Shown: positions 2,136-10,231 of the stretch, in pieces
How the letters are laid out: the number at the start of each line of letters is the position of its first letter
How positions within the stretch are numbered: position 1 is the first letter of the stretch
Origin: Acidobacteriota bacterium
Lineage (GTDB): Bacteria; Acidobacteriota; UBA6911; JACQSX01
DNA: 10,231 bases
Assembly (NCBI GenBank): GCA_036507075.1
Contig: DASXQR010000126.1
Span: 1-10,231, forward strand
Direction: 5' to 3'
Translations under genes and position numbers: made by a program
The notes under the pieces: generated by a model
Told to the model about the DNA's origin: nothing
Database searches by the model: none
The model's input: the letters and a program-made list of their open reading frames with translations, nothing else

Positions 2136-3494
2136 TTAGCCCTGCTGCTCCTCATGACTGTAAATGATGCGGTCGCCTTGCAGCCGCGCATATGCGACGC
2201 TGGCTCGCTCCTTGCCCGATCCCTCAATTCGCCACCTGCCTTTTTCTTCGACCAGTTTCATCTGGCTACGTTCTCGCCACCAATCGTTTACTTCCCGAGG
2301 AAGCGCAATCCATATCCGTTTTTCGGAGCGTAGCTGTGAAAGATAGGCCAGCAACTCTCTATAGGTTTTCCTGGCGCGTCTCTCAATGATGTAATCCGGA
2401 TGAATAATGAAACTTACTAGCCCATGTTTCTCCGTGATCAAGTCTATCTGGCTTTTCCAGACCTCAATGGAGTAATCGCCGATAATGTGGAACAGGGAAT
2501 AGTCTTGGGTCGTGGTGACGGGTAACTCCAGAATATGGTTCACGAAATACGGCATCACCGTGCAACATCCACCACGCTGGGGTTCCAAGTGAGCGGCATT
2601 AGGCACAGACATGTCGTAGGAAAACTGAAGGGCATCGTACCAGTCCTGGTTTCGATAGAGAATAGCGGAGCGAAAACCGGCAGCACGGTATTGCTGCGCA
2701 TATTCATTTATCTGTTTGGCGCGAGCCAAGAACTGCTCGCGGCTGGAGAAAAGATGCCCATCATGATTGAGGTCCTGAACGACTATCTCAAATCCCCTTG
2801 CGCGAATTTTGTCCAGCAGATCTTCAGAGAAGCGATAACGCTTCTCTGGCACGATTTGAAATGAAGCCTTAACCGCATATGAGTCATCCAGGTCCATTAG
2901 GGAAGGGCAAAAGTCGCGACCGGCGGAGGTCTCCACGTCGTGAGTAATGATGGCACAACTAGGCGCACCATTTGGCCAGAACCAGATGAACGGTATCTTG
3001 TCAGCATTGTGTGCTCGCAGCGACAGCATTAGAAGTTTTTCCAGGATCCGTTCGACCGTTCGGTCAACAGGCCAATGCGGAAAGTGTATCTGGCTCCAGT
3101 CACTCAAGTGGATCCTTTGGAAATGCTTGCGCATCCACACAGGCATTAAGGGCCGGACCAGATAATAAGCCTGTTTCACCGATCTGTTGGGAGCAAGCCT
3201 TGTCCCGTTTTGCAGGTGAGCAACGTAGCGTTCATAGCGCAAGTTGTCTATTGCCTCGGTCGGGTCAAACGGCAGACAGCAAGTGGTCCCTTCGAGTTGC
3301 ACCTCGTCGAATGTGTCAAATAACGTACCTGTGGGTCTCGGGGCGCGAAACCCGCAAGTGGACCGTCCATAGCAGACTGCATCGGTGCCAAATAAAAAGT
3401 AACCGGTGTCACTTGACAATGCACCGGCCGACGTGAAATCGGCAAACTTCTGCGGACAACGATAATAATCCAGATAAGCCTGGTTTGTTTTCAT
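2136..3494 (-). CDS. CE4/NodB-like polysaccharide deacetylase/deformylase family protein with a long N-terminal extension
   Basis: 452 aa. The C-terminal half has CE4-type motifs in order: IITHDVE, QDLNHDGH, GFRSA, YDMS, ELPVT, IIHPDY. The N-terminal ~170 aa has no motif I recognise. Confidence 0.72.
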   Translation of the reverse strand: MKTNQAYLDYYRCPQKFADFTSAGALSSDTGYFLFGTDAVCYGRSTCGFRAPRPTGTLFDTFDEVQLEGTTCCLPFDPTEAIDNLRYERYVAHLQNGTRLAPNRSVKQAYYLVRPLMPVWMRKHFQRIHLSDWSQIHFPHWPVDRTVERILEKLLMLSLRAHNADKIPFIWFWPNGAPSCAIITHDVETSAGRDFCPSLMDLDDSYAVKASFQIVPEKRYRFSEDLLDKIRARGFEIVVQDLNHDGHLFSSREQFLARAKQINEYAQQYRAAGFRSAILYRNQDWYDALQFSYDMSVPNAAHLEPQRGGCCTVMPYFVNHILELPVTTTQDYSLFHIIGDYSIEVWKSQIDLITEKHGLVSFIIHPDYIIERRARKTYRELLAYLSQLRSEKRIWIALPREVNDWWRERSQMKLVEEKGRWRIEGSGKERASVAYARLQGDRIIYSHEEQQG

Positions 3495-3615: not shown

Positions 3616-4506
3616 TTACGTTGGACGACTGGGCGCCAATGCAATTGCGGCTAGATATCCCCGGGCGGGCGAAAACGATCGCACCTTCCACTCAGTTCGA
3701 GTTGGTAATTGTCCTGCGATACTCAGGATTTCAGCCTCTTCCCCTGGTGTGAGCGTAACTTCCACCTTCGCCAACCCACCGCCGATGCCTTCACCGGTCG
3801 CCTTCAAGAAGGACTCCTTGCCGGTCCAGTAGGCAAAAAACCTTTCAATCCGGCTTTCGGTTGGCACCGCCAACAACGTCGCCGCTTCACGCGGAGAGAA
3901 GAACTGCGAGGCGATCTCTTCGAAATTTGGAACCGGCCGAAGGTACTCGACATCCACGCCGATTGAGAATGCGCGTGTCACTGCGTATATCGCTAAATCT
4001 CCGGAATGTGAGGCATTGAAGTTCAAACGGTTGCGAGCGGCATCATGTTGGATTTCCGGCTTCCCGAACGGTCCATAACAAAAATCAATTGCGGAAGGAT
4101 GTCGCTTTAGATAACGGCCGAGGATTAGCCGAAGTATTCCGTGGCGGATGATGTAATGATTACGGTCTTTGGAAAACCGGAATCTCTCGGCTTTGGCTCG
4201 CTCGGCGGATGAAATTAGGGCCTCGAACCGCGGCAACTCGCAATCAAAGTCACTCAGAGCTGCGCACCAAACGTGGATTTGTTCGCTCTCGAGACGCAGA
4301 GTCTCAGGTGGACAAGGCCACGAGATCACCGAAGTAGTGAAAACCACCGATTCTGTTAAGTTTCTTGTTCCCGGCATTGCGCCGCAATCCATAAAGGGGG
4401 CGTTCGGAATCGAGATGCCGTGCCAGCCCGTGGCAGAAGAGAATCTCACCCGTGTGGTCGTGTACGCAGAAAATGGGGAAACGGTGAGAGCCTCATTTAG
4501 CTCCAA
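3616..4506 (-). CDS. Sfp-type 4'-phosphopantetheinyl transferase
   Basis: Motifs GKP, FNASHSGD, IGVDVE and WTGKESFLKATG. The start is uncertain: conserved sequence begins near ISWPCPP (~4329), and ATG 4392, ATG 4377 or GTG 4329 are alternatives to TTG 4506. Confidence 0.92.
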   Translation of the reverse strand: MELNEALTVSPFSAYTTTRVRFSSATGWHGISIPNAPFMDCGAMPGTRNLTESVVFTTSVISWPCPPETLRLESEQIHVWCAALSDFDCELPRFEALISSAERAKAERFRFSKDRNHYIIRHGILRLILGRYLKRHPSAIDFCYGPFGKPEIQHDAARNRLNFNASHSGDLAIYAVTRAFSIGVDVEYLRPVPNFEEIASQFFSPREAATLLAVPTESRIERFFAYWTGKESFLKATGEGIGGGLAKVEVTLTPGEEAEILSIAGQLPTRTEWKVRSFSPARGYLAAIALAPSRPT

Positions 4507-4531
4507 CCAGGGAAGATTGCAAACCCGCGGA

Positions 4532-6289
4532 TCAGTGATCGCGAATTATTTTTGCGAGATCTTTTATTGTCTGCACCTTGAACAGCATGGCCACGGGAAT
4601 TTTTACTCCAAAGGCCTTCTCGATTTGCGCGAATAGCTGCGCAGCAAGCAGAGAGTCCCCTCCTAATTCGAAAAGGTTCTGGTCAATTCCGATCGGCCGG
4701 ATGCGCAACGCCGCTTCCCAGATATCCACTAACTTGGATTCCAGGTCGTCTCTCGGTGTACTGATCTCTACCCGAGTAGTCCGTTGAATCTCCATTGGTG
4801 GCGGCTTCGGGTCAACCTCGATATTGCGGATTCGCCGTGTCGGATCCTTCAACATCGCTTGGAGAATGGTCCGATAATGCTCCAAAAGGCGCCTCATCGT
4901 TGCGGGTTCAAACAAGTCCGTGCTGTACTCCATCGCTACCTCGAGTGTTGGTTCAATTTTGAGCCGAACAGTGAGGTCGAATTGCGCGTTTCGGGTTTCG
5001 ACCGGGAACCAACCGATGTTCAATTCGGGAATCTGCCACTCGACTTTAGGCGCGTTTTGCAAAACGAACATCACTTGAAACAGTGGATTCCGGCTCGGGT
5101 CAGGTACAGGCACAAGTTCCTCTACCAACTTGCCGAAAGGCAAATCATGGTAGGAATAAGCCGTCAGCGTATTCTCGCGAATCTGAGCGAGAAGCTCGCG
5201 GAACGTCGGGTTCCCCGACATGTCAGCGAAAAGAATAAACTGATTCCCAAACCGGCCGATCAGCCCTTCGACCTCGATCAAAGAACGATTTGCCGCGCAG
5301 GAGGCCACTCCTATGGTTTGATGGCTTGAATAAAGGTGGAGAAGGCACTGGAACGCCGCCAGCAGCATCATAAACGGGCTGACTCGCTCTCGCTGGCTCA
5401 TGACTTTCAAGAAATTAGCCGTGTCATCCGAAAAGGTCATCACTTCGCGGGCACCGCGATAGCTCCGGCGTGCCGGACGGGCCTGATCAGTCGTCAAATG
5501 GTGAAAGTCGTTCTTGTCGCTCAACTGCTGCTTCCAGAAATGAAGTCTTGATTCGAGTTCTCTCCCACGCAGCCGCTCCTGTTGCCATCTCACGAAATCT
5601 CCATATTGGAAACTCGGTTCGGAGAGCGGGGAACGGAATCCAGTGTCGAACGCCGGATACAATGTGGACAATTCGCGAATAAGGATTGCCGTGGACCAGT
5701 CGTCATACACGATGTCATGGGTAGTCAACTGCAGGACGTGATCCTCCGCGCCCAATCGCAACAGACCAACTCGAAGCAAAGGTCCTCGTCTGAGATCGAA
5801 TGGCCGGCTGGCTTCTTCCAGAACCAGGCGGGACGCTTGAGCGTTTCTTTCGGCTTCCGGCATCCGCGTCAAATCCATTACCGCTATTTCGATAGGCTCC
5901 GCCGGAATGATGATCTGGACAAGCTTCCCGTCTACATTCCTGAAAACTGACCGCAATACCTGGTGCCGTCGCACGATCTCCTGAAGACTTGCTTCCAGAG
6001 CCTTCAGATTGAGGGGACCTTGAATTCGAAGCGGCAGGGGATAGTTATGTGCAGCACTGTCCGACTCCCAAGGCTCCTGAACCCACCACTGCTGTTGAAA
6101 GAACCATGTCGGCGCTGGAAACGCAGCTTCAGCATGTAATTCGAGTTTGCTCTGACCTTTGCTGTCGAGCAACCCTAGAAGCAGGCAACCGCATAATCCC
6201 ATCCCTTCCCACCCCATGAACATCAGCGGATCGTTATCCGCCAGCACCAGCGTCAGTATCGCCAACATGAAGATTTTCCACAGCTTCAT
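4532..6289 (-). CDS. NRPS-like protein: N-terminal NuoL-like hydrophobic hairpin + atypical condensation domain + PCP (no A domain)
   Basis: C-domain landmarks RHQVLRS, PFDLRRGPLLR, YGDFVRWQ, LIGRFGN, LPFGKLVEEL, RNPLFQVMF. The active-site motif reads THDIVYDDWS. C-terminal PCP QNLFELGGDSLLA. ATG 6289 has GGTGG upstream; ATG 6322 and GTG 6349 are alternative starts. Confidence 0.88.
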   Translation of the reverse strand: MKLWKIFMLAILTLVLADNDPLMFMGWEGMGLCGCLLLGLLDSKGQSKLELHAEAAFPAPTWFFQQQWWVQEPWESDSAAHNYPLPLRIQGPLNLKALEASLQEIVRRHQVLRSVFRNVDGKLVQIIIPAEPIEIAVMDLTRMPEAERNAQASRLVLEEASRPFDLRRGPLLRVGLLRLGAEDHVLQLTTHDIVYDDWSTAILIRELSTLYPAFDTGFRSPLSEPSFQYGDFVRWQQERLRGRELESRLHFWKQQLSDKNDFHHLTTDQARPARRSYRGAREVMTFSDDTANFLKVMSQRERVSPFMMLLAAFQCLLHLYSSHQTIGVASCAANRSLIEVEGLIGRFGNQFILFADMSGNPTFRELLAQIRENTLTAYSYHDLPFGKLVEELVPVPDPSRNPLFQVMFVLQNAPKVEWQIPELNIGWFPVETRNAQFDLTVRLKIEPTLEVAMEYSTDLFEPATMRRLLEHYRTILQAMLKDPTRRIRNIEVDPKPPPMEIQRTTRVEISTPRDDLESKLVDIWEAALRIRPIGIDQNLFELGGDSLLAAQLFAQIEKAFGVKIPVAMLFKVQTIKDLAKIIRDH

Positions 6290-6318
6290 TGCAAATCCAC
6301 CCCACCCCACCGGTCTCG

Positions 6319-6420
6319 TCATCCATCGGAGGCACATCCCAGCCCACACTGATTTTCGTTATTGGGGCGTTCGGGCTCCGAAAGAAGGCTGATGCTATCA
6401 ATTGCCTCACTCCTACTCAT
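6319..6420 (-). CDS. Possible 33-aa small ORF bridging the P450 and C-PCP genes
   Basis: MSRSEAIDSISLLSEPERPNNENQCGLGCASDG. Its ATG overlaps the P450 stop (ATGA, 6417-6420) and its stop overlaps an in-frame ATG of the C-PCP gene (ATGA, 6319-6322). Only a weak SD. Confidence 0.25.
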   Translation of the reverse strand: MSRSEAIDSISLLSEPERPNNENQCGLGCASDG

Positions 6421-7721
6421 GGGCCGCTCTTCTCGCATTGACCTCCCAGCGAGGCATCGCTGGCACGCTTCGGAGTTCCGAAGCTGACGGGCAGAGCCTT
6501 CAGACCACGATATGCCTGGTTCGTTCGCCAAACGAGCGGACCGGAATCCAGGACAAGATCAGGCATTCGGACTAACATTTCTTCAAATGCAGTCTGGCCT
6601 TCGAGGCGCGCCAGAGGTGCGCCGAAACAGAAGTGGGCACCCCAGCCAAATGCAACGTGGCGGTTGTCTCTGCGGGTGATATCCAGCCGGTCCGGATCCG
6701 GGAAGCATTCCGGATCCCGGTTCGCGGAGGCCATTACGGCCAGGACCGCCTGCCCCTTGCGAAGCTCTTTTCCTCCCAGTACGGTGTCTTCAGGAGCCAG
6801 GCGGGCCGTGTACTGAATTGGGCTCTCGTACCGCAGAAATTCCTCAACCGCTGACGGGATCAGCGAAAGGTCTGAGCGGATTTTTTCGAGTTGATCCGGA
6901 TTGCGCAAAAGCGAGAGCACGCCGTTGCCGATAAGATTTGTGGTGGTCTCCTGGCCGCCTACCATCGTTATGATACAGTTGGCGACCACTTCTTCTTCAG
7001 TCAGCCGGCTGCCTTCAATCTCCGCATTCAGAAGGGCGCTCACCAGCCCTCCTCGTGGCTGCAAGCGCTGGTCGCGAATCGCGGTTTGGAAATAGGCGGC
7101 CATCTCCCGCACGCTCTCAAGAATCTGCAGCGCATGATCAGGATTGTGCTGAAAATTGCCGAGCATCTCGGCGAAGTCTTGTGACCACGCTTTCAACTGA
7201 GGATGGTCCTCGACGGGCACGCCGAGCATCTCGGCAGTGACGATGGATGGAAGCGGCTCGCCTAAGTCCGCGATCACATCCATTCGGCCTTGAGATTGCA
7301 CCGCATCAAGCAGGCTTTTTACGATATCCCGGATGTGTGACCGCAACACCTCGACGCGCTGAGGCGTGAATGCCACGGATGCTAAGTTCCGCAGTCGAGC
7401 ATGCGCGGGAGGATCCATAAAGAGCATCTGCTTCACCATCACTTCGGCAATCGGATTCAGCGCCGATAGACCCAAGGAGGTCAGCTGATCCGGCGTGGGG
7501 GTGCGTTCAGCAGAAAAATGGCGGAGCACATGGACAACGTCATGATAGCGAGTGACGACCCAAGCGTGCAGGAATGGGTCCCAGTGCACAGGGTTCTCGC
7601 TGCGGAGCCGATGAAAGAGTGGATATGGATTCGCTAAGACCTCAGGGTTGAGTAAATGAGAAAGGCTTGGGGTCGGATCCGGCCTCCCTGTGCCGGGAGG
7701 AACTTGAATGTCCATAGTCAC
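6417..7721 (-). CDS. Cytochrome P450
   Basis: 434 aa. MDPPAHARLR, I-helix GGQETT, ExxR (EFLRYESP), NRDP..FPDPDRLDI and heme motif FGWGAHFCFG (Cys codon 6627-6629). The GTG start overlaps the upstream stop (GTGA 7718-7721); ATG 7715 is an alternative. Confidence 0.97.
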   Translation of the reverse strand: MTMDIQVPPGTGRPDPTPSLSHLLNPEVLANPYPLFHRLRSENPVHWDPFLHAWVVTRYHDVVHVLRHFSAERTPTPDQLTSLGLSALNPIAEVMVKQMLFMDPPAHARLRNLASVAFTPQRVEVLRSHIRDIVKSLLDAVQSQGRMDVIADLGEPLPSIVTAEMLGVPVEDHPQLKAWSQDFAEMLGNFQHNPDHALQILESVREMAAYFQTAIRDQRLQPRGGLVSALLNAEIEGSRLTEEEVVANCIITMVGGQETTTNLIGNGVLSLLRNPDQLEKIRSDLSLIPSAVEEFLRYESPIQYTARLAPEDTVLGGKELRKGQAVLAVMASANRDPECFPDPDRLDITRRDNRHVAFGWGAHFCFGAPLARLEGQTAFEEMLVRMPDLVLDSGPLVWRTNQAYRGLKALPVSFGTPKRASDASLGGQCEKSGP

Positions 7722-9604
7722 GGCGGATTCGCATCTGACTGCGGCGCTTCGCTAAGAATCGATAGAGCTTCGCTCCCCGCATCCAGTTTGGCGAGAATAA
7801 GCCGTTCGATCTCGCGTGACAGTTCTACCAGGGTGGGAGATTCAAACAGGCTGCGCAGGCTGAGACTGACTCCGAATGTGTCGCGAACTCTGGCGATGAG
7901 CTGGGTTCCCAACAAGGAATGTCCACCAAGGAGAAAGAAGTTGTCTTCCACGCTTACCTGATCGAGACCAAGAAGCGGCGCCAGGGTTGTTGCCAGCCAT
8001 TCCTCCACCTCTGTTCGAGGTGCAGCGAAGTTGTCGTCACGAAGGGTATTAGCGGCACTTGGCGAAGGAAGTGCCGCGCGGTCCAATTTGCCGTTCGGGT
8101 TCAGCGGCAGAGCCGGCAGGACCACAAACATGGCCGGCACCATGTATTCGGGCAGACGTGCCGCAAGAAAGGTCCGCAACGCGCTGGCGACAGGCCGGGA
8201 TTTCGGGTCTAGGACAAGATAGGCGACCAAGCGCTGGTCCCCAAGGCCAACTTCCCGAGCCACAACGGCGCTCTGTAAGACTGCTGGATGCTCGTCCAAT
8301 AGTGTCACGACTTCGTTCGGCTCGATTCGAAAACCCCGGATCTTGATTTGATCGTCGATCCGCCCCAAAAAGACAATCTGCCCGTCCGCTAAATAACAGC
8401 CCAAATCTCCAGTCTTGTAAAGACGCGTGTTGGGCTCGGTGCCGAAAGGATTCGGGAGAAATCTCTCCTCGGTCAGATCCGGTCGATTCCGATAACCCCG
8501 GGCAACGCCGGCTCCGCCGATGTAGATTTCTCCAACCGTGCCGACAGGGACTGGTTGGAGAGATCCATCCAAAAGGTAAACCTGCACGTTTGCGATGGGC
8601 CGGCCGATCGGAGGAAGTCGATACGGTCGCGCGTTCGGAAGGACGGGCCCGGACGTGGTCACCACCGTGCATTCCGTGGGACCATAATTGTTGATCAGCT
8701 GAAATGGGAGATTTATCGGCGGGTAGTAATGTAGTGTATCAGCTCCCGTCAGCATCGTACGCAGGGCGGTGTCTGCAGGCCATTGCAGAGCCATTAATCG
8801 CTCAGCCACCGGTGTTGGCACGAATCCGATGGTGATGCCCTGCGCAACCAACCAGTCGCGAAGCGCTTCAGGCTCGGTCAAGATACCTTCATTCGAAATG
8901 TGCAGGCTGGCTCCCGCTGTCAAATAGGGCCACAGTTCCCATACGGCAGCGTCGAAGCCCACTGGGGAAAGGTGGCTCGCGCGATCGGCAGCCGTTACCC
9001 CGAAGGTCCTCCGGTGCCAATGCACAAGATTCAGGAGGCTGTCGTGAGTAATCTCCACTCCCTTTGGCTGGCCGGTGGAACCAGAAGTATAGATAACATA
9101 GGCCAAGTCATCTGATTTTGCGTCGAGGACAGGGAACTCCGGAGGCAGGGCATAGGACGGTATTTCATCCAGGGTCACCAAATGGCGGCGGCCCTCAGCG
9201 AGTTTTTCTCTCAAGGATGCGCTTGTCACAACCACACGAGCTTGCGCGTCATCCAGAAGGAACTCCAACCGAGTCACGGGATGAGATGGATCGAGTGGCA
9301 AGTATGCGCCGCCCGCTTTAAGGATTCCGAGCGCGCCCACAACAGAAGCTGTGGATCGATGCAGGCATAGCCCAACGACACTGTCAGGTCCTACTCCTAG
9401 CGAGCGCATATGATGAGCCAGACTATTGGCCTGGACGTCCAGTTCTTTGTAGGTCAGGATCCGATCGCCGGCCGCTACAGCAACTGCATCTGGGGTCGCC
9501 AGGGCCTGGTCTGCCACCAGATCGGGAACGCTCTTCTCCTGGGGATACGGCCGATGAGTCTCTAGATGACGTATCCAAGTGCTGTTCTTCGCACCTTTTG
9601 GCAT
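7718..9604 (-). CDS. Stand-alone NRPS adenylation-PCP didomain, predicted leucine-activating
   Basis: A-domain cores LKAGGAYLPLDP, YVIYTSGSTGQPKG, FDAAVWE, NNYGPTE, GEIYIGGAGVARGY, YKTGDL, GRIDDQIKIRGFRIE, NGKLDR. PCP motif DNFFLLGGHSLL. Start placed at ATG 9604 (purine-rich GAAGGAAACGGAAAGAG upstream), giving 628 aa. Confidence 0.95.
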   Translation of the reverse strand: MPKGAKNSTWIRHLETHRPYPQEKSVPDLVADQALATPDAVAVAAGDRILTYKELDVQANSLAHHMRSLGVGPDSVVGLCLHRSTASVVGALGILKAGGAYLPLDPSHPVTRLEFLLDDAQARVVVTSASLREKLAEGRRHLVTLDEIPSYALPPEFPVLDAKSDDLAYVIYTSGSTGQPKGVEITHDSLLNLVHWHRRTFGVTAADRASHLSPVGFDAAVWELWPYLTAGASLHISNEGILTEPEALRDWLVAQGITIGFVPTPVAERLMALQWPADTALRTMLTGADTLHYYPPINLPFQLINNYGPTECTVVTTSGPVLPNARPYRLPPIGRPIANVQVYLLDGSLQPVPVGTVGEIYIGGAGVARGYRNRPDLTEERFLPNPFGTEPNTRLYKTGDLGCYLADGQIVFLGRIDDQIKIRGFRIEPNEVVTLLDEHPAVLQSAVVAREVGLGDQRLVAYLVLDPKSRPVASALRTFLAARLPEYMVPAMFVVLPALPLNPNGKLDRAALPSPSAANTLRDDNFAAPRTEVEEWLATTLAPLLGLDQVSVEDNFFLLGGHSLLGTQLIARVRDTFGVSLSLRSLFESPTLVELSREIERLILAKLDAGSEALSILSEAPQSDANPP

Positions 9605-9794
9605 CTCTTTCCGTTTCCTTCTCACTCGAAGGAACGCGCCGTGTAGCGGATGAATTCTGAGGGCGCGTTCTGGATGATCATGATTTTGAAAATCTAGTAA
9701 CAAGCGCCTGGGAGCGGGGAGAGCCGTAGCCAATAGTGGCATTAGTGCTGACTGTTTCGGCCGGGACGATAATCCCCCCCACTTTCTCTGGCCT

Positions 9795-9809
9795 GCAATC
9801 TAGGAACCA
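9795..9809 (-). promoter_or_regulatory. Putative sigma54 (RpoN) -24/-12 promoter for the NRPS-like operon
   Basis: Minus strand (C)TGGTTCCTAGATTGC(A) has exact GG-N10-GC spacing and a canonical TTGCA -12 box. It lies in the 392-bp intergenic region upstream of the A-PCP gene. Confidence 0.58.
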
Positions 9810-9852
9810 GAACCTCTCCTGACCACAAAACATTAAATCCGAAGAAGTTGGA

Positions 9853-9879
9853 CAGAGTCCGTAAACACAACCGACTCTG
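9853..9879. repeat. Inverted repeat CAGAGTC-N13-GACTCTG
   Basis: Perfect 7-bp arms between the putative enhancer box and the -24/-12 element. No strong U-tract, so not called a terminator. Confidence 0.4.
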
Positions 9880-9882
9880 AAG

Positions 9883-9900
9883 TGTGCAGTCACATACCCA
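9883..9900 (-). promoter_or_regulatory. Putative enhancer/activator binding site TGGGTA-N6-TGCACA
   Basis: Minus strand TGGGTATGTGACTGCACA has both 6-bp arms and the spacing identical to the site at 826-843. It lies 73 nt upstream of the -24 box (68 nt at the other promoter). Confidence 0.55.
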
Positions 9901-9996
9901 ACGATGGTAAGTCCAATCATAACGCTTTTAGACAGCATGCTTGCTGAAGGCATTTCATTGCCACGACTGACACTTTTGAGGCCTTCCCCCAGCCGT

Positions 9997-10231
9997 TCAA
10001 CGGCGGAGCACTTCCTTCCTGACAAACTCATATGCTCCCCTGTCCCACACGCCATCTGTGCCTCGGGTGGTGCCATTTGGATCTAAAGTAAAAGGGGCTG
10101 AAAGTACGTTTCCCGCCCTGGTGGCTGCCGTTAAACGAAAATCTGCATCTGCGGGATCCGTCAATGAATTCCAGGTTTGGAAGGGATTCCCGCTTCCCAG
10201 TTGACTGTTGGATTCGCCGGCCACCGCCCCG
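9997..10231 (-). CDS. C-terminal fragment of a probable secreted parallel beta-helix / choice-of-anchor-Q-like protein (partial; begins beyond the right edge)
   Basis: The frame is open to the window edge. The tail DFRLTAAT...DPNGTTRGTDGVWDRGAYEF matches the DF.L....D..G..R.....D.GAYE C-terminal motif common in pectin-lyase-fold extracellular proteins. Confidence 0.65.
   Translation of the reverse strand, partial: GAVAGESNSQLGSGNPFQTWNSLTDPADADFRLTAATRAGNVLSAPFTLDPNGTTRGTDGVWDRGAYEFVRKEVLRR

Follow-up and report, generated by a model that had tools for sequence, protein, structure and literature searches.

A nuoL-derived segment fused in frame to a nonribosomal peptide synthetase gene of a soil acidobacterium, most likely captured at a rearrangement breakpoint

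How did a piece of a respiratory complex I gene come to lie at the head of a nonribosomal peptide synthetase (NRPS) gene, and does it do anything there? The question is raised by a 10,231-nucleotide (nt) stretch of DNA from an Acidobacteriota bacterium (assembly GCA_036507075.1, contig DASXQR010000126.1), which is called the window throughout. The window is the entire contig C126 of a 6.1-Mb, 233-contig genome that is 95.7% complete, and all of its genes lie on the minus strand. One of them encodes a condensation (C) domain followed by a peptidyl carrier protein (PCP), and DNA derived from nuoL is fused to it in frame. Most likely, this piece is filler DNA captured at a rearrangement breakpoint. 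Two features are at issue:

4532..6289, minus strand: open reading frame (ORF) of the hairpin-C-PCP protein, 585 amino acids (aa), with the condensation domain at about 4817-6103 and the PCP at about 4547-4735 (Pfam).
6172..6277, minus strand: nuoL-derived DNA, encoding residues 5/6 to 39 (BLAST, 83% over 100 nt; NCBIfam NuoL models).

The C-PCP ORF (6289..4532) opens with MKLWKIFMLAILTLVLADNDPLMFMGWEGMGLCGCLLLGLLDSK, as read in the original prediction (MKLWK and onward). That prediction saw a likeness to NuoL/ND5 and proposed a profile search, which returns a significant match. Residues 1-50 alone match the NCBIfam NuoL model NF005141 at E 6.7e-9 (profile positions 119-158 of 615), and they match the NuoL model TIGR01974 at E 1.3e-8. 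Within the C-PCP protein, the full-length NuoL models match residues 5-41, and weaker matches on the same stretch come from the relatives MrpA, FpoL, and HyfB. Pfam assigns no family to the 50-residue piece, which is detected only by the NCBIfam full-length NuoL models. With 28-35 bits against cut-offs of 407.5 and 556, over profile positions 119-158 or 120-159 only, the protein does not score as a NuoL, which at full length has about 14-16 transmembrane helices. Comparison with Protein Data Bank sequences gives ungapped alignments with residues 108-144 of Thermus thermophilus Nqo12 (E 5.9e-8; 4he8_L) and residues 121-157 of Escherichia coli NuoL (E 7.3e-8; 3rko_L/7z7r_L); in the alignment with the solved E. 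coli protein, 19 positions are identical, the number claimed beforehand. Glu28 (codon 6206-6208), the glutamate of the NuoL/ND5 GWEG motif, aligns with E. coli NuoL position 144. The matched residues are taken to be transmembrane helices 4 and 5 (TM4 and TM5) of NuoL, and Glu144 is presumably the proton-path residue of TM5. The gap-free likeness over residues 5-41 thus keeps LVLAD, GWEG with the Glu144 equivalent, and GLC, whereas the window holds only 40 of ~615 profile positions and has altered 11 residues that are fixed in the nuoLs of the class. A piece without partner helices or the Lys relay cannot act as an antiporter.

The DNA itself points to a donor. By BLAST, the genome's own nuoL gene on contig C144 (62-161) matches positions 6172-6271 at 83% identity over 100 nt, and a second nuoL copy on contig C45 matches at 83% over 80 nt. 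Among 538 Acidobacteriota genomes (137 of the class and 401 of the phylum), the C144 gene is the best DNA match; the next-best matches reach 79-80% over more than 90 nt (at best 80% over 92 nt), or 84% over just 68 nt. On the 3′ side, homology to nuoL is lost abruptly just past GGGT; on the 5′ side, it tapers off at about 6277. The coordinates first given, 6170-6274, are correct and can be refined to about 6172-6277, and the sole nuoL match in the contig lies at 6158-6277, which bears out the statement that no other part of nuoL is in the window. Judged by these alignments, the segment is derived from the TM4-TM5 region of nuoL. The genome's two nuoL paralogues (C45:33921-34447 and C144:1-581) each run up to a contig edge and end there on the same residue (...KKAFVVNR), and their last ~130 nt are identical. 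The assembly was evidently interrupted where the two genes share sequence, which leaves both of them incomplete in the metagenome-assembled genome.

A fusion found in a metagenome-assembled genome, with both true nuoL copies at contig ends, might be an assembly chimera in which NRPS DNA was wrongly joined to a nuoL read or contig. Contigs from other assemblies bear on this. A 9561-nt Logan contig from the possible source run (X1) spans 5200-7200 with 0 differences. In a second soil sample from another study (X2), contigs cover 5702-6258, 6271-6423, and 6437-7200, also with 0 differences and at depths of 5.4-5.6; the first of these bridges the nuoL/C-domain joint at 6172, with 470 and 86 letters on either side. 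Coverage in X2 is interrupted at 6258/6271, in the best-conserved part of nuoL, to which short nuoL pieces of other organisms map as well. Among the X2 contigs listed, none covers 6259-6270 and none crosses the 5′ border with 31 letters to left and right, and these points speak for a chimera. X3 and X4 hold short pieces only, some of them from nuoL or cytochrome P450 genes of other organisms. The same C-PCP protein is also recorded on a 10,869-nt contig, apparently this DNA assembled once more and hence not independent support. Against a chimera, two false borders would be needed within ~105 nt, and a copy only 83% identical to the genome's own nuoL offers no shared k-mers for mis-joining. The sequence is the same from two assemblers on X1 and from X2, where a contig crosses the 3′ joint and the break is flanked by contigs of equal depth. 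Because the nuoL/C-domain joint is present in contigs from two soil samples, a chimera is extremely improbable. As far as contigs can show, the fusion is not an assembly artefact.

What was the gene before the piece arrived? The condensation domain (PF00668) is matched at E 1.8e-85, with 287.8 bits against a gathering threshold of 30.6, over profile positions 9-445 of 456. The PCP (PP-binding, PF00550) is matched at E 7e-18 with 65.1 bits; it contains LGGDSL, and its Gly544 and Ser546 occupy invariant or near-invariant family columns. An AlphaFold2 model of the protein has a mean predicted local distance difference test (pLDDT) score of 86.1, with block means mostly at or above 88 from residue 51 on. 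The family comprises 1166 proteins at E ≤ 1e-30 among 8000 candidates scored. Nearly all of the best 120 are C-PCP-thioesterase (C-PCP-TE) proteins of 800-900 aa with 47-58% identity to the window protein, and the identity of family members spans residues ~45-585.

The N-terminus of the window protein is not that of its family. In each of the 47 homologues aligned, a polar leader takes its place; this leader varies in length (2-90 residues) and ends in the conserved ...LL..L....PEL.AEDAFVVP.WF.QQ..W. In the window, Leu40-Leu41-Asp42...ELHAEAAFPAPTWFFQQQWW aligns with the leader, and family homology starts at the codon where nuoL homology stops (GGG/TTG, 6172). Since family homology begins right at the joint, the original 5′ end of the gene has been replaced. 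The nuoL hairpin is found in none of the 123 other fetched family proteins; with the window's own protein (P0007) included, one of 124 has GWEG or an N-terminal hydrophobic window. Three others reach a Kyte-Doolittle value of 1.6, only at positions 37-91 (conserved leader/C1 region or C domain). The genomes of 40 relatives contain no orthologue of the C-PCP protein, the best matches being 43-44% identical to C domains within large NRPSs. A metagenome scan yielded nine loci at 32-51% identity, none of which matches residues 1-37, and a query with residues 1-130 found the N-terminal part solely in the window's own protein. Absence from all homologues had been named beforehand as the mark of a recent accident, and such absence (0/123) is what is seen.

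The other end of the gene is damaged as well:

4380..4531, minus strand: thioesterase-domain remnant in the same frame as C-PCP, following the TGA at 4534-4532 (tblastn, translation, and X-masked alignments).

A second in-frame TGA lies within the remnant at 4495-4493. In tblastn, full-length homologues pass the C-PCP stop and reach 4382 (four of six), 4349, or 4307. The frame after the stop reads SAGLQSSLVGAK-TGA-GSHRFPIFCVHDHTGEILFCHGLARHLDSERPLYGLR and aligns with the start of the family TE domain. It continues for ~50-75 codons and ends well before the catalytic G-x-[SC]-x-G. Selenocysteine was considered for the in-frame TGAs and rejected, as homologues have Gly/Lys/Thr/Ser/Arg at one position and Pro/Ser at the other, never Cys, and the domain is truncated anyway. 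The residues of the homologues at these two columns identify the TGAs as nonsense codons. The “585-aa C-PCP” is a truncated C-PCP-TE, a gene cut at both ends. It shares with the family 47-58% identity, the F..P.WF.QQ..W ... NYPL motif, and the same neighbors (loci L038, L047, and L041); where the family has a polar leader and a C-terminal TE, the window has a nuoL hairpin and a broken TE stub after the stop.

Between the two cuts, the C-PCP part is without visible decay. It differs at 11 of 121 near-invariant family columns and ranks 7th of 48, within the range of other lone lineages. The active-site motif of condensation domains is HHxxxDG. In the window this C3 motif reads T-H-D-I-V-Y-D-D, with Asp replacing the second His. 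The replacement was examined as a sign of decay and rejected, because 5 of 47 homologues share H-D; three more have H-Q or H-T, and the first His and the Asp are invariant. In this cluster family, the N-terminal part of the C domain bears an unusual motif, F..P.WF.QQ..W, and the second His of C3 varies. The family TE has the consensus G-Y-C-F-G-G, in which Cys takes the place of the usual Ser nucleophile. Cys-type TEs acting on beta-hydroxy amino acids make beta-lactones, as in obafluorin.

What brought the nuoL piece to this place? The insert has two borders, both abrupt, within ~105 nt, and a second breakpoint of the gene lies 1.7 kb away. No flanking direct repeat or target-site duplication was found around the insert, and the genome encodes Ku (150 bits). 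Abrupt borders, no flanking repeat, a donor in the same genome, a second breakpoint, and Ku fit the capture of filler DNA by end joining or illegitimate recombination. Chimeric genes attributed to filler DNA and non-homologous end joining are alike in having a short same-genome copy at a non-homologous joint without target duplication; the described cases found, in the parts of that literature available, are eukaryotic. The original prediction had read the segment as a hairpin co-opted for membrane anchoring or as a fragment inserted by illegitimate recombination. Its nuoL TM4-TM5 origin, its in-frame fusion to the C domain, and its non-homologous insertion (abrupt borders, no repeats, absence in homologues) stand, and the evidence on the membrane anchor points both ways.

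The proposed sequence of events is as follows. About 105 nt of the lineage's own nuoL, from the TM4-turn-TM5 region, would have been copied and captured as filler at a non-homologous rearrangement joint. The rearrangement would have removed the start and first codons of the C-PCP-TE gene in a conserved cluster of adenylation (A)-PCP, P450, C-PCP-TE, and phosphopantetheinyl transferase (PPTase) genes. The nuoL piece would have landed in frame, and an ATG 12 nt upstream would now open the reading frame. The new N-terminus would start with a strongly hydrophobic helix, turn at DNDP, and continue into another helix of marginal hydrophobicity, in which the NuoL Glu is retained. Such a hairpin could insert with both ends inside (N-in/C-in), Lys2 and Lys5 flanking it on one side and Lys44 and Lys48 on the other, and would hold a cytoplasmic C-PCP at the inner membrane. 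Taken as a whole, the reading that a piece of the genome's own nuoL was captured at a rearrangement joint, and that C-PCP is most likely produced with 40 new N-terminal residues, is evenly balanced between right and wrong.

Whether the hairpin is made depends on where translation starts. The relevant features are:

6290..6416, minus strand: 127-nt spacer from the P450 stop to ATG 6289, holding a G-rich Shine-Dalgarno (SD)-like run, ggtggggtggggtgga, at 6296-6311.
6287..6289, minus strand: ATG, the likeliest start codon, 12 nt upstream of the nuoL-derived DNA and not itself nuoL-derived.
6239..6274, minus strand: hydrophobic segment 1, IFMLAILTLVLA, residues 6-17, after MKLWK (mean Kyte-Doolittle 3.0 over 12 residues).
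6227..6238, minus strand: turn DNDP, residues 18-21 (alignment with nuoLs).
6167..6226, minus strand: hydrophobic segment 2, LMFMGWEGMGLCGCLLLGLL, residues 22-41 with Glu28 (mean Kyte-Doolittle 1.68 over 20 residues, borderline).
6170..6172, minus strand: in-frame TTG (Leu40) exactly at the nuoL/NRPS joint, a possible alternative start without the hairpin.

Among 14 candidate starts, none pairs with the anti-SD sequence as strongly as ATG 6289 (-7.3 kcal, through the G-rich run upstream of it). Recorded gene calls begin there (585 aa) or at ATG 6322 (596 aa, 11 codons longer, on the Logan contig). A promoter and terminator scan of 5900-6700 gave 0 sites, and Rfam gave 0 families on the window. 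Among the sequencing runs listed as containing the stretch, none is of RNA. The TTG offers a different view, in which the nuoL piece is an inert scar, untranslated or functionless filler, with translation starting at TTG 6172 (MLDSKGQSK...) or with the C-PCP gene becoming a pseudogene. A TTG start would give a leader like those of the homologues, some of which (P0027 and P0028) begin just 1-3 residues before the equivalent point. However, the TTG (...ctaggg TTG) lacks a usable SD-like sequence, its anti-SD pairing being weak and too close. Translation of the C-PCP protein from ATG 6289 is fairly probable.

If translated, the piece could reach the membrane in more than one way. Segment 1 is a short TM helix or else resembles the h-region of a signal peptide. 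By eye, MKLWK / IFMLAILTLVL / V-L-A before Asp has the layout of a cleavable Sec signal, so MKLWK-IFMLAILTLVLA might be cut after VLA and helix 2 left as an N-out/C-in stop-transfer anchor; if helix 2 failed as stop-transfer, the protein would be mis-exported. Two Lys in the n-region, a 12-residue h-region of signal-peptide rather than TM length, and Val at -3 and Ala at -1 before Asp18 all suit such a signal. The assignment comes from visual inspection, the equivalent of helix 1 in NuoL is presumably the permanent TM4, and an exported C-PCP could not be loaded by a cytoplasmic A-PCP and PPTase, which makes a Sec signal improbable. The AlphaFold2 model, with pLDDT below 50 over residues 1-49 and helices at 2-16 and 33-42 only, is uninformative on membrane insertion. 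Insertion in either of two forms, an N-in/C-in hairpin or a cleaved signal plus one anchor, with C-PCP staying cytoplasmic at the membrane, is slightly favored when the two are taken together. A selective benefit of the hairpin would be less probable than its translation and insertion.

The substitutions in the fragment bear on its translation and on such a benefit. It differs from the nuoL consensus of the class at 11 amino acids, and the genome's own nuoL agrees with the consensus at all of these sites, which places every change on the branch of the fragment. Nine of the 11 lie in the two hydrophobic segments and are all non-polar, three of them replacing polar residues (S>G, Y>C, and Y>L). 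The remaining two sit in the turn and yield Asp-Pro, where the canonical nuoL of the class reads [DN]N[YF][LVA] at the position of DNDP. In a simulation, random nucleotide change with stops forbidden was continued until 11-13 residues differed, in 8000 runs for each of three donors. No new polar residue appeared in either segment with P = 0.0004-0.002, and hydrophobicity was at least that observed with P = 0.010-0.017; with 21 random substitutions, this hydrophobicity was reached in 0.4-0.9% of runs. The frame through the nuoL segment is open, without an indel in 105 nt despite 21 substitutions. By codon position these 21 nucleotide differences divide into 12 third, 6 first, and 3 second, a skew of which part belongs to the nuoL branch. 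A search of 5.8 billion protein clusters with residues 1-45 gave 25 candidates, of which only the window's own passed, a blank that is weak evidence. As the clusters hold no protein closer to the variant hairpin, the changes probably arose after capture, and any tuning of the hairpin would probably postdate it too.

On the strongest view of this pattern, a captured respiratory proton-pump hairpin was tuned by selection outside complex I and made C-PCP a membrane-tethered enzyme. The tuning would comprise the change of the turn to DNDP and of Ser/Tyr/Tyr in helix 2 to Gly/Cys/Leu, and the enzyme, having lost its TE, may pass its product on to an acceptor or exporter bound to the membrane. An anchor is favored by substitutions that keep or raise hydrophobicity and by an ATG with the best SD-like context of 14 starts.

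A number of observations weigh against a working hairpin. The hydrophobicity test, the bounds of the segments, and the set of polar residues were all picked after the sequence was known. Pairwise dN/dS (non-synonymous to synonymous rate ratio) against the genome's own nuoL is 0.34, compared with 0.07-0.13 for six real nuoLs, and since synonymous changes are shared by two branches, the fragment's own value could be near 1. With the hairpin in one lineage only, purifying selection is not measurable across species. The open frame is weak evidence, as the probability of no stop given 21 random substitutions is 0.49-0.59, and Thermus Nqo12 natively has Pro at turn position 4, that of Pro21 in the window. 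Segment 1 has only 12 uninterrupted hydrophobic residues, and segment 2, at a Kyte-Doolittle mean of 1.68, carries a mid-helix Glu and five Gly; a short first segment and a marginal second one make stable membrane insertion doubtful. In complex I, the TM5 Glu is buried among partner helices. The marginal helix 2 with its Glu and the loss of the TE domain from the same gene both speak against an anchor role. A close substitute for the TE is absent from the contig, and elsewhere in the genome only one weak PF00975 match occurs. With the TE lost and no close substitute, the cluster may be in decay and the fusion tolerated as a scar. With these points counted, a selected, membrane-tethering hairpin is unlikely.

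The same points feed the main rival, an inert scar in a decaying cluster. None of the other 123 family proteins has the piece, and the TE remnant with its two TGAs demonstrates that the 3′ end has become pseudogene sequence. The dN/dS ratio is relaxed compared with that of true nuoL genes, and an open frame is not improbable by chance. Inertness is harder to reconcile with a replacement pattern that is very unlikely under neutral drift (P ~0.002), with zero indels across the piece, and with a C-PCP part that is intact by the comparison of near-invariant columns. An inert scar is a possible reading, on the doubtful side. The capture of nuoL filler, with C-PCP made from ATG 6289, is set beside it at the strength given above.

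The remaining genes place the event in a recurrent type of cluster:

7718..9742, minus strand: A-PCP didomain gene, intact, its stop overlapping the P450 start by 4 nt, 59% identical to the A-PCP of Verrucomicrobiia locus L038.
6417..7721, minus strand: cytochrome P450 gene, intact, 67% identical to the homologue in the L038 cluster.
3616..4506, minus strand: Sfp-type PPTase ORF, with homology over 3637-4293, on the same strand as C-PCP.
2136-3494, minus strand: 452-aa ORF with sub-threshold deacetylase and DUF5878 matches only.
Minus strand, after the 452-aa ORF: formyltransferase gene.

Pfam assigns no family, at E ≤ 0.01, to five further minus-strand ORFs of 60-208 aa (2-625, 642-824, 837-1124, 9678-10076, and 9997-10230). 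At its N-terminus, the A-PCP ORF is extended by ~45-70 codons (9535-9742) that lack a counterpart in homologues, tblastn homology beginning at 9535; the true start may be an internal ATG preceded by gagaaggaa. The Verrucomicrobiia loci L038 and L047 contain, in this order, A-PCP, P450, a stand-alone C protein, C-PCP-TE, and PPTase, and the Terriglobia locus L041 has A-PCP, P450, a 257-nt gap, and C-PCP-TE. The stand-alone C gene of the Verrucomicrobiia clusters occupies the spot where the window has the hairpin junction. The PPTase genes of L038 (9466-10296) and L047 (9607-10449) are on the opposite strand and convergent, whereas in the window the PPTase is co-directional, an arrangement that could have come about through inversion or replacement at the 3′ breakpoint. 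This cluster type, with A-PCP, an overlapping P450, an optional C, C-PCP-TE, and PPTase, is widespread in soil, in Verrucomicrobiota, Terriglobia, Ca. Cybelea, and others, and the family appears to be uncharacterised.

Membrane-bound NRPS machinery as such is not unprecedented. The Pls-type synthetases, epsilon-poly-L-lysine synthetase and its relatives, are described, in the part of the source available, as membrane-bound NRPS-like enzymes with six TM segments (10.1101/2020.07.24.220772). They resemble the present case as A/T-type assembly enzymes whose C-like domains are held at the membrane by integral TM helices. In Pls, however, six conserved TM segments interleave three acetyltransferase-like C domains, an arrangement absent from the window, where one foreign N-terminal hairpin precedes a canonical Pfam Condensation domain in a single lineage. 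For cereulide synthetase, the text available reports tethering to the membrane by the ABC transporter CesCD (PMC7527721). There, too, an NRPS condensation-type domain is brought to the membrane, and this matters for product formation; the tether is a separate ABC transporter, unlike the fused TM segment of the window. A limited literature search, which is not proof of absence, brought up no canonical C domain with a hairpin from complex I; judged by title and abstract opening, none of the papers mentioning both NuoL and nonribosomal peptides deals with a fusion.

The fusion is a one-off evolutionary event and, on present evidence, as much rearrangement scar as innovation. The annotation “585-aa C-PCP” conceals a broken C-PCP-TE gene. 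As a scar only, the piece would still document how a soil acidobacterium with Ku captured filler DNA where a rearrangement was joined. Should the hairpin be produced and inserted, a bacterial protein would have been caught gaining a TM anchor from ~100 bases of an unrelated housekeeping gene. The locus would then offer a natural test of moving an NRPS domain to the membrane, relevant to pathway engineering and to the question of why some synthetases are membrane-sited.

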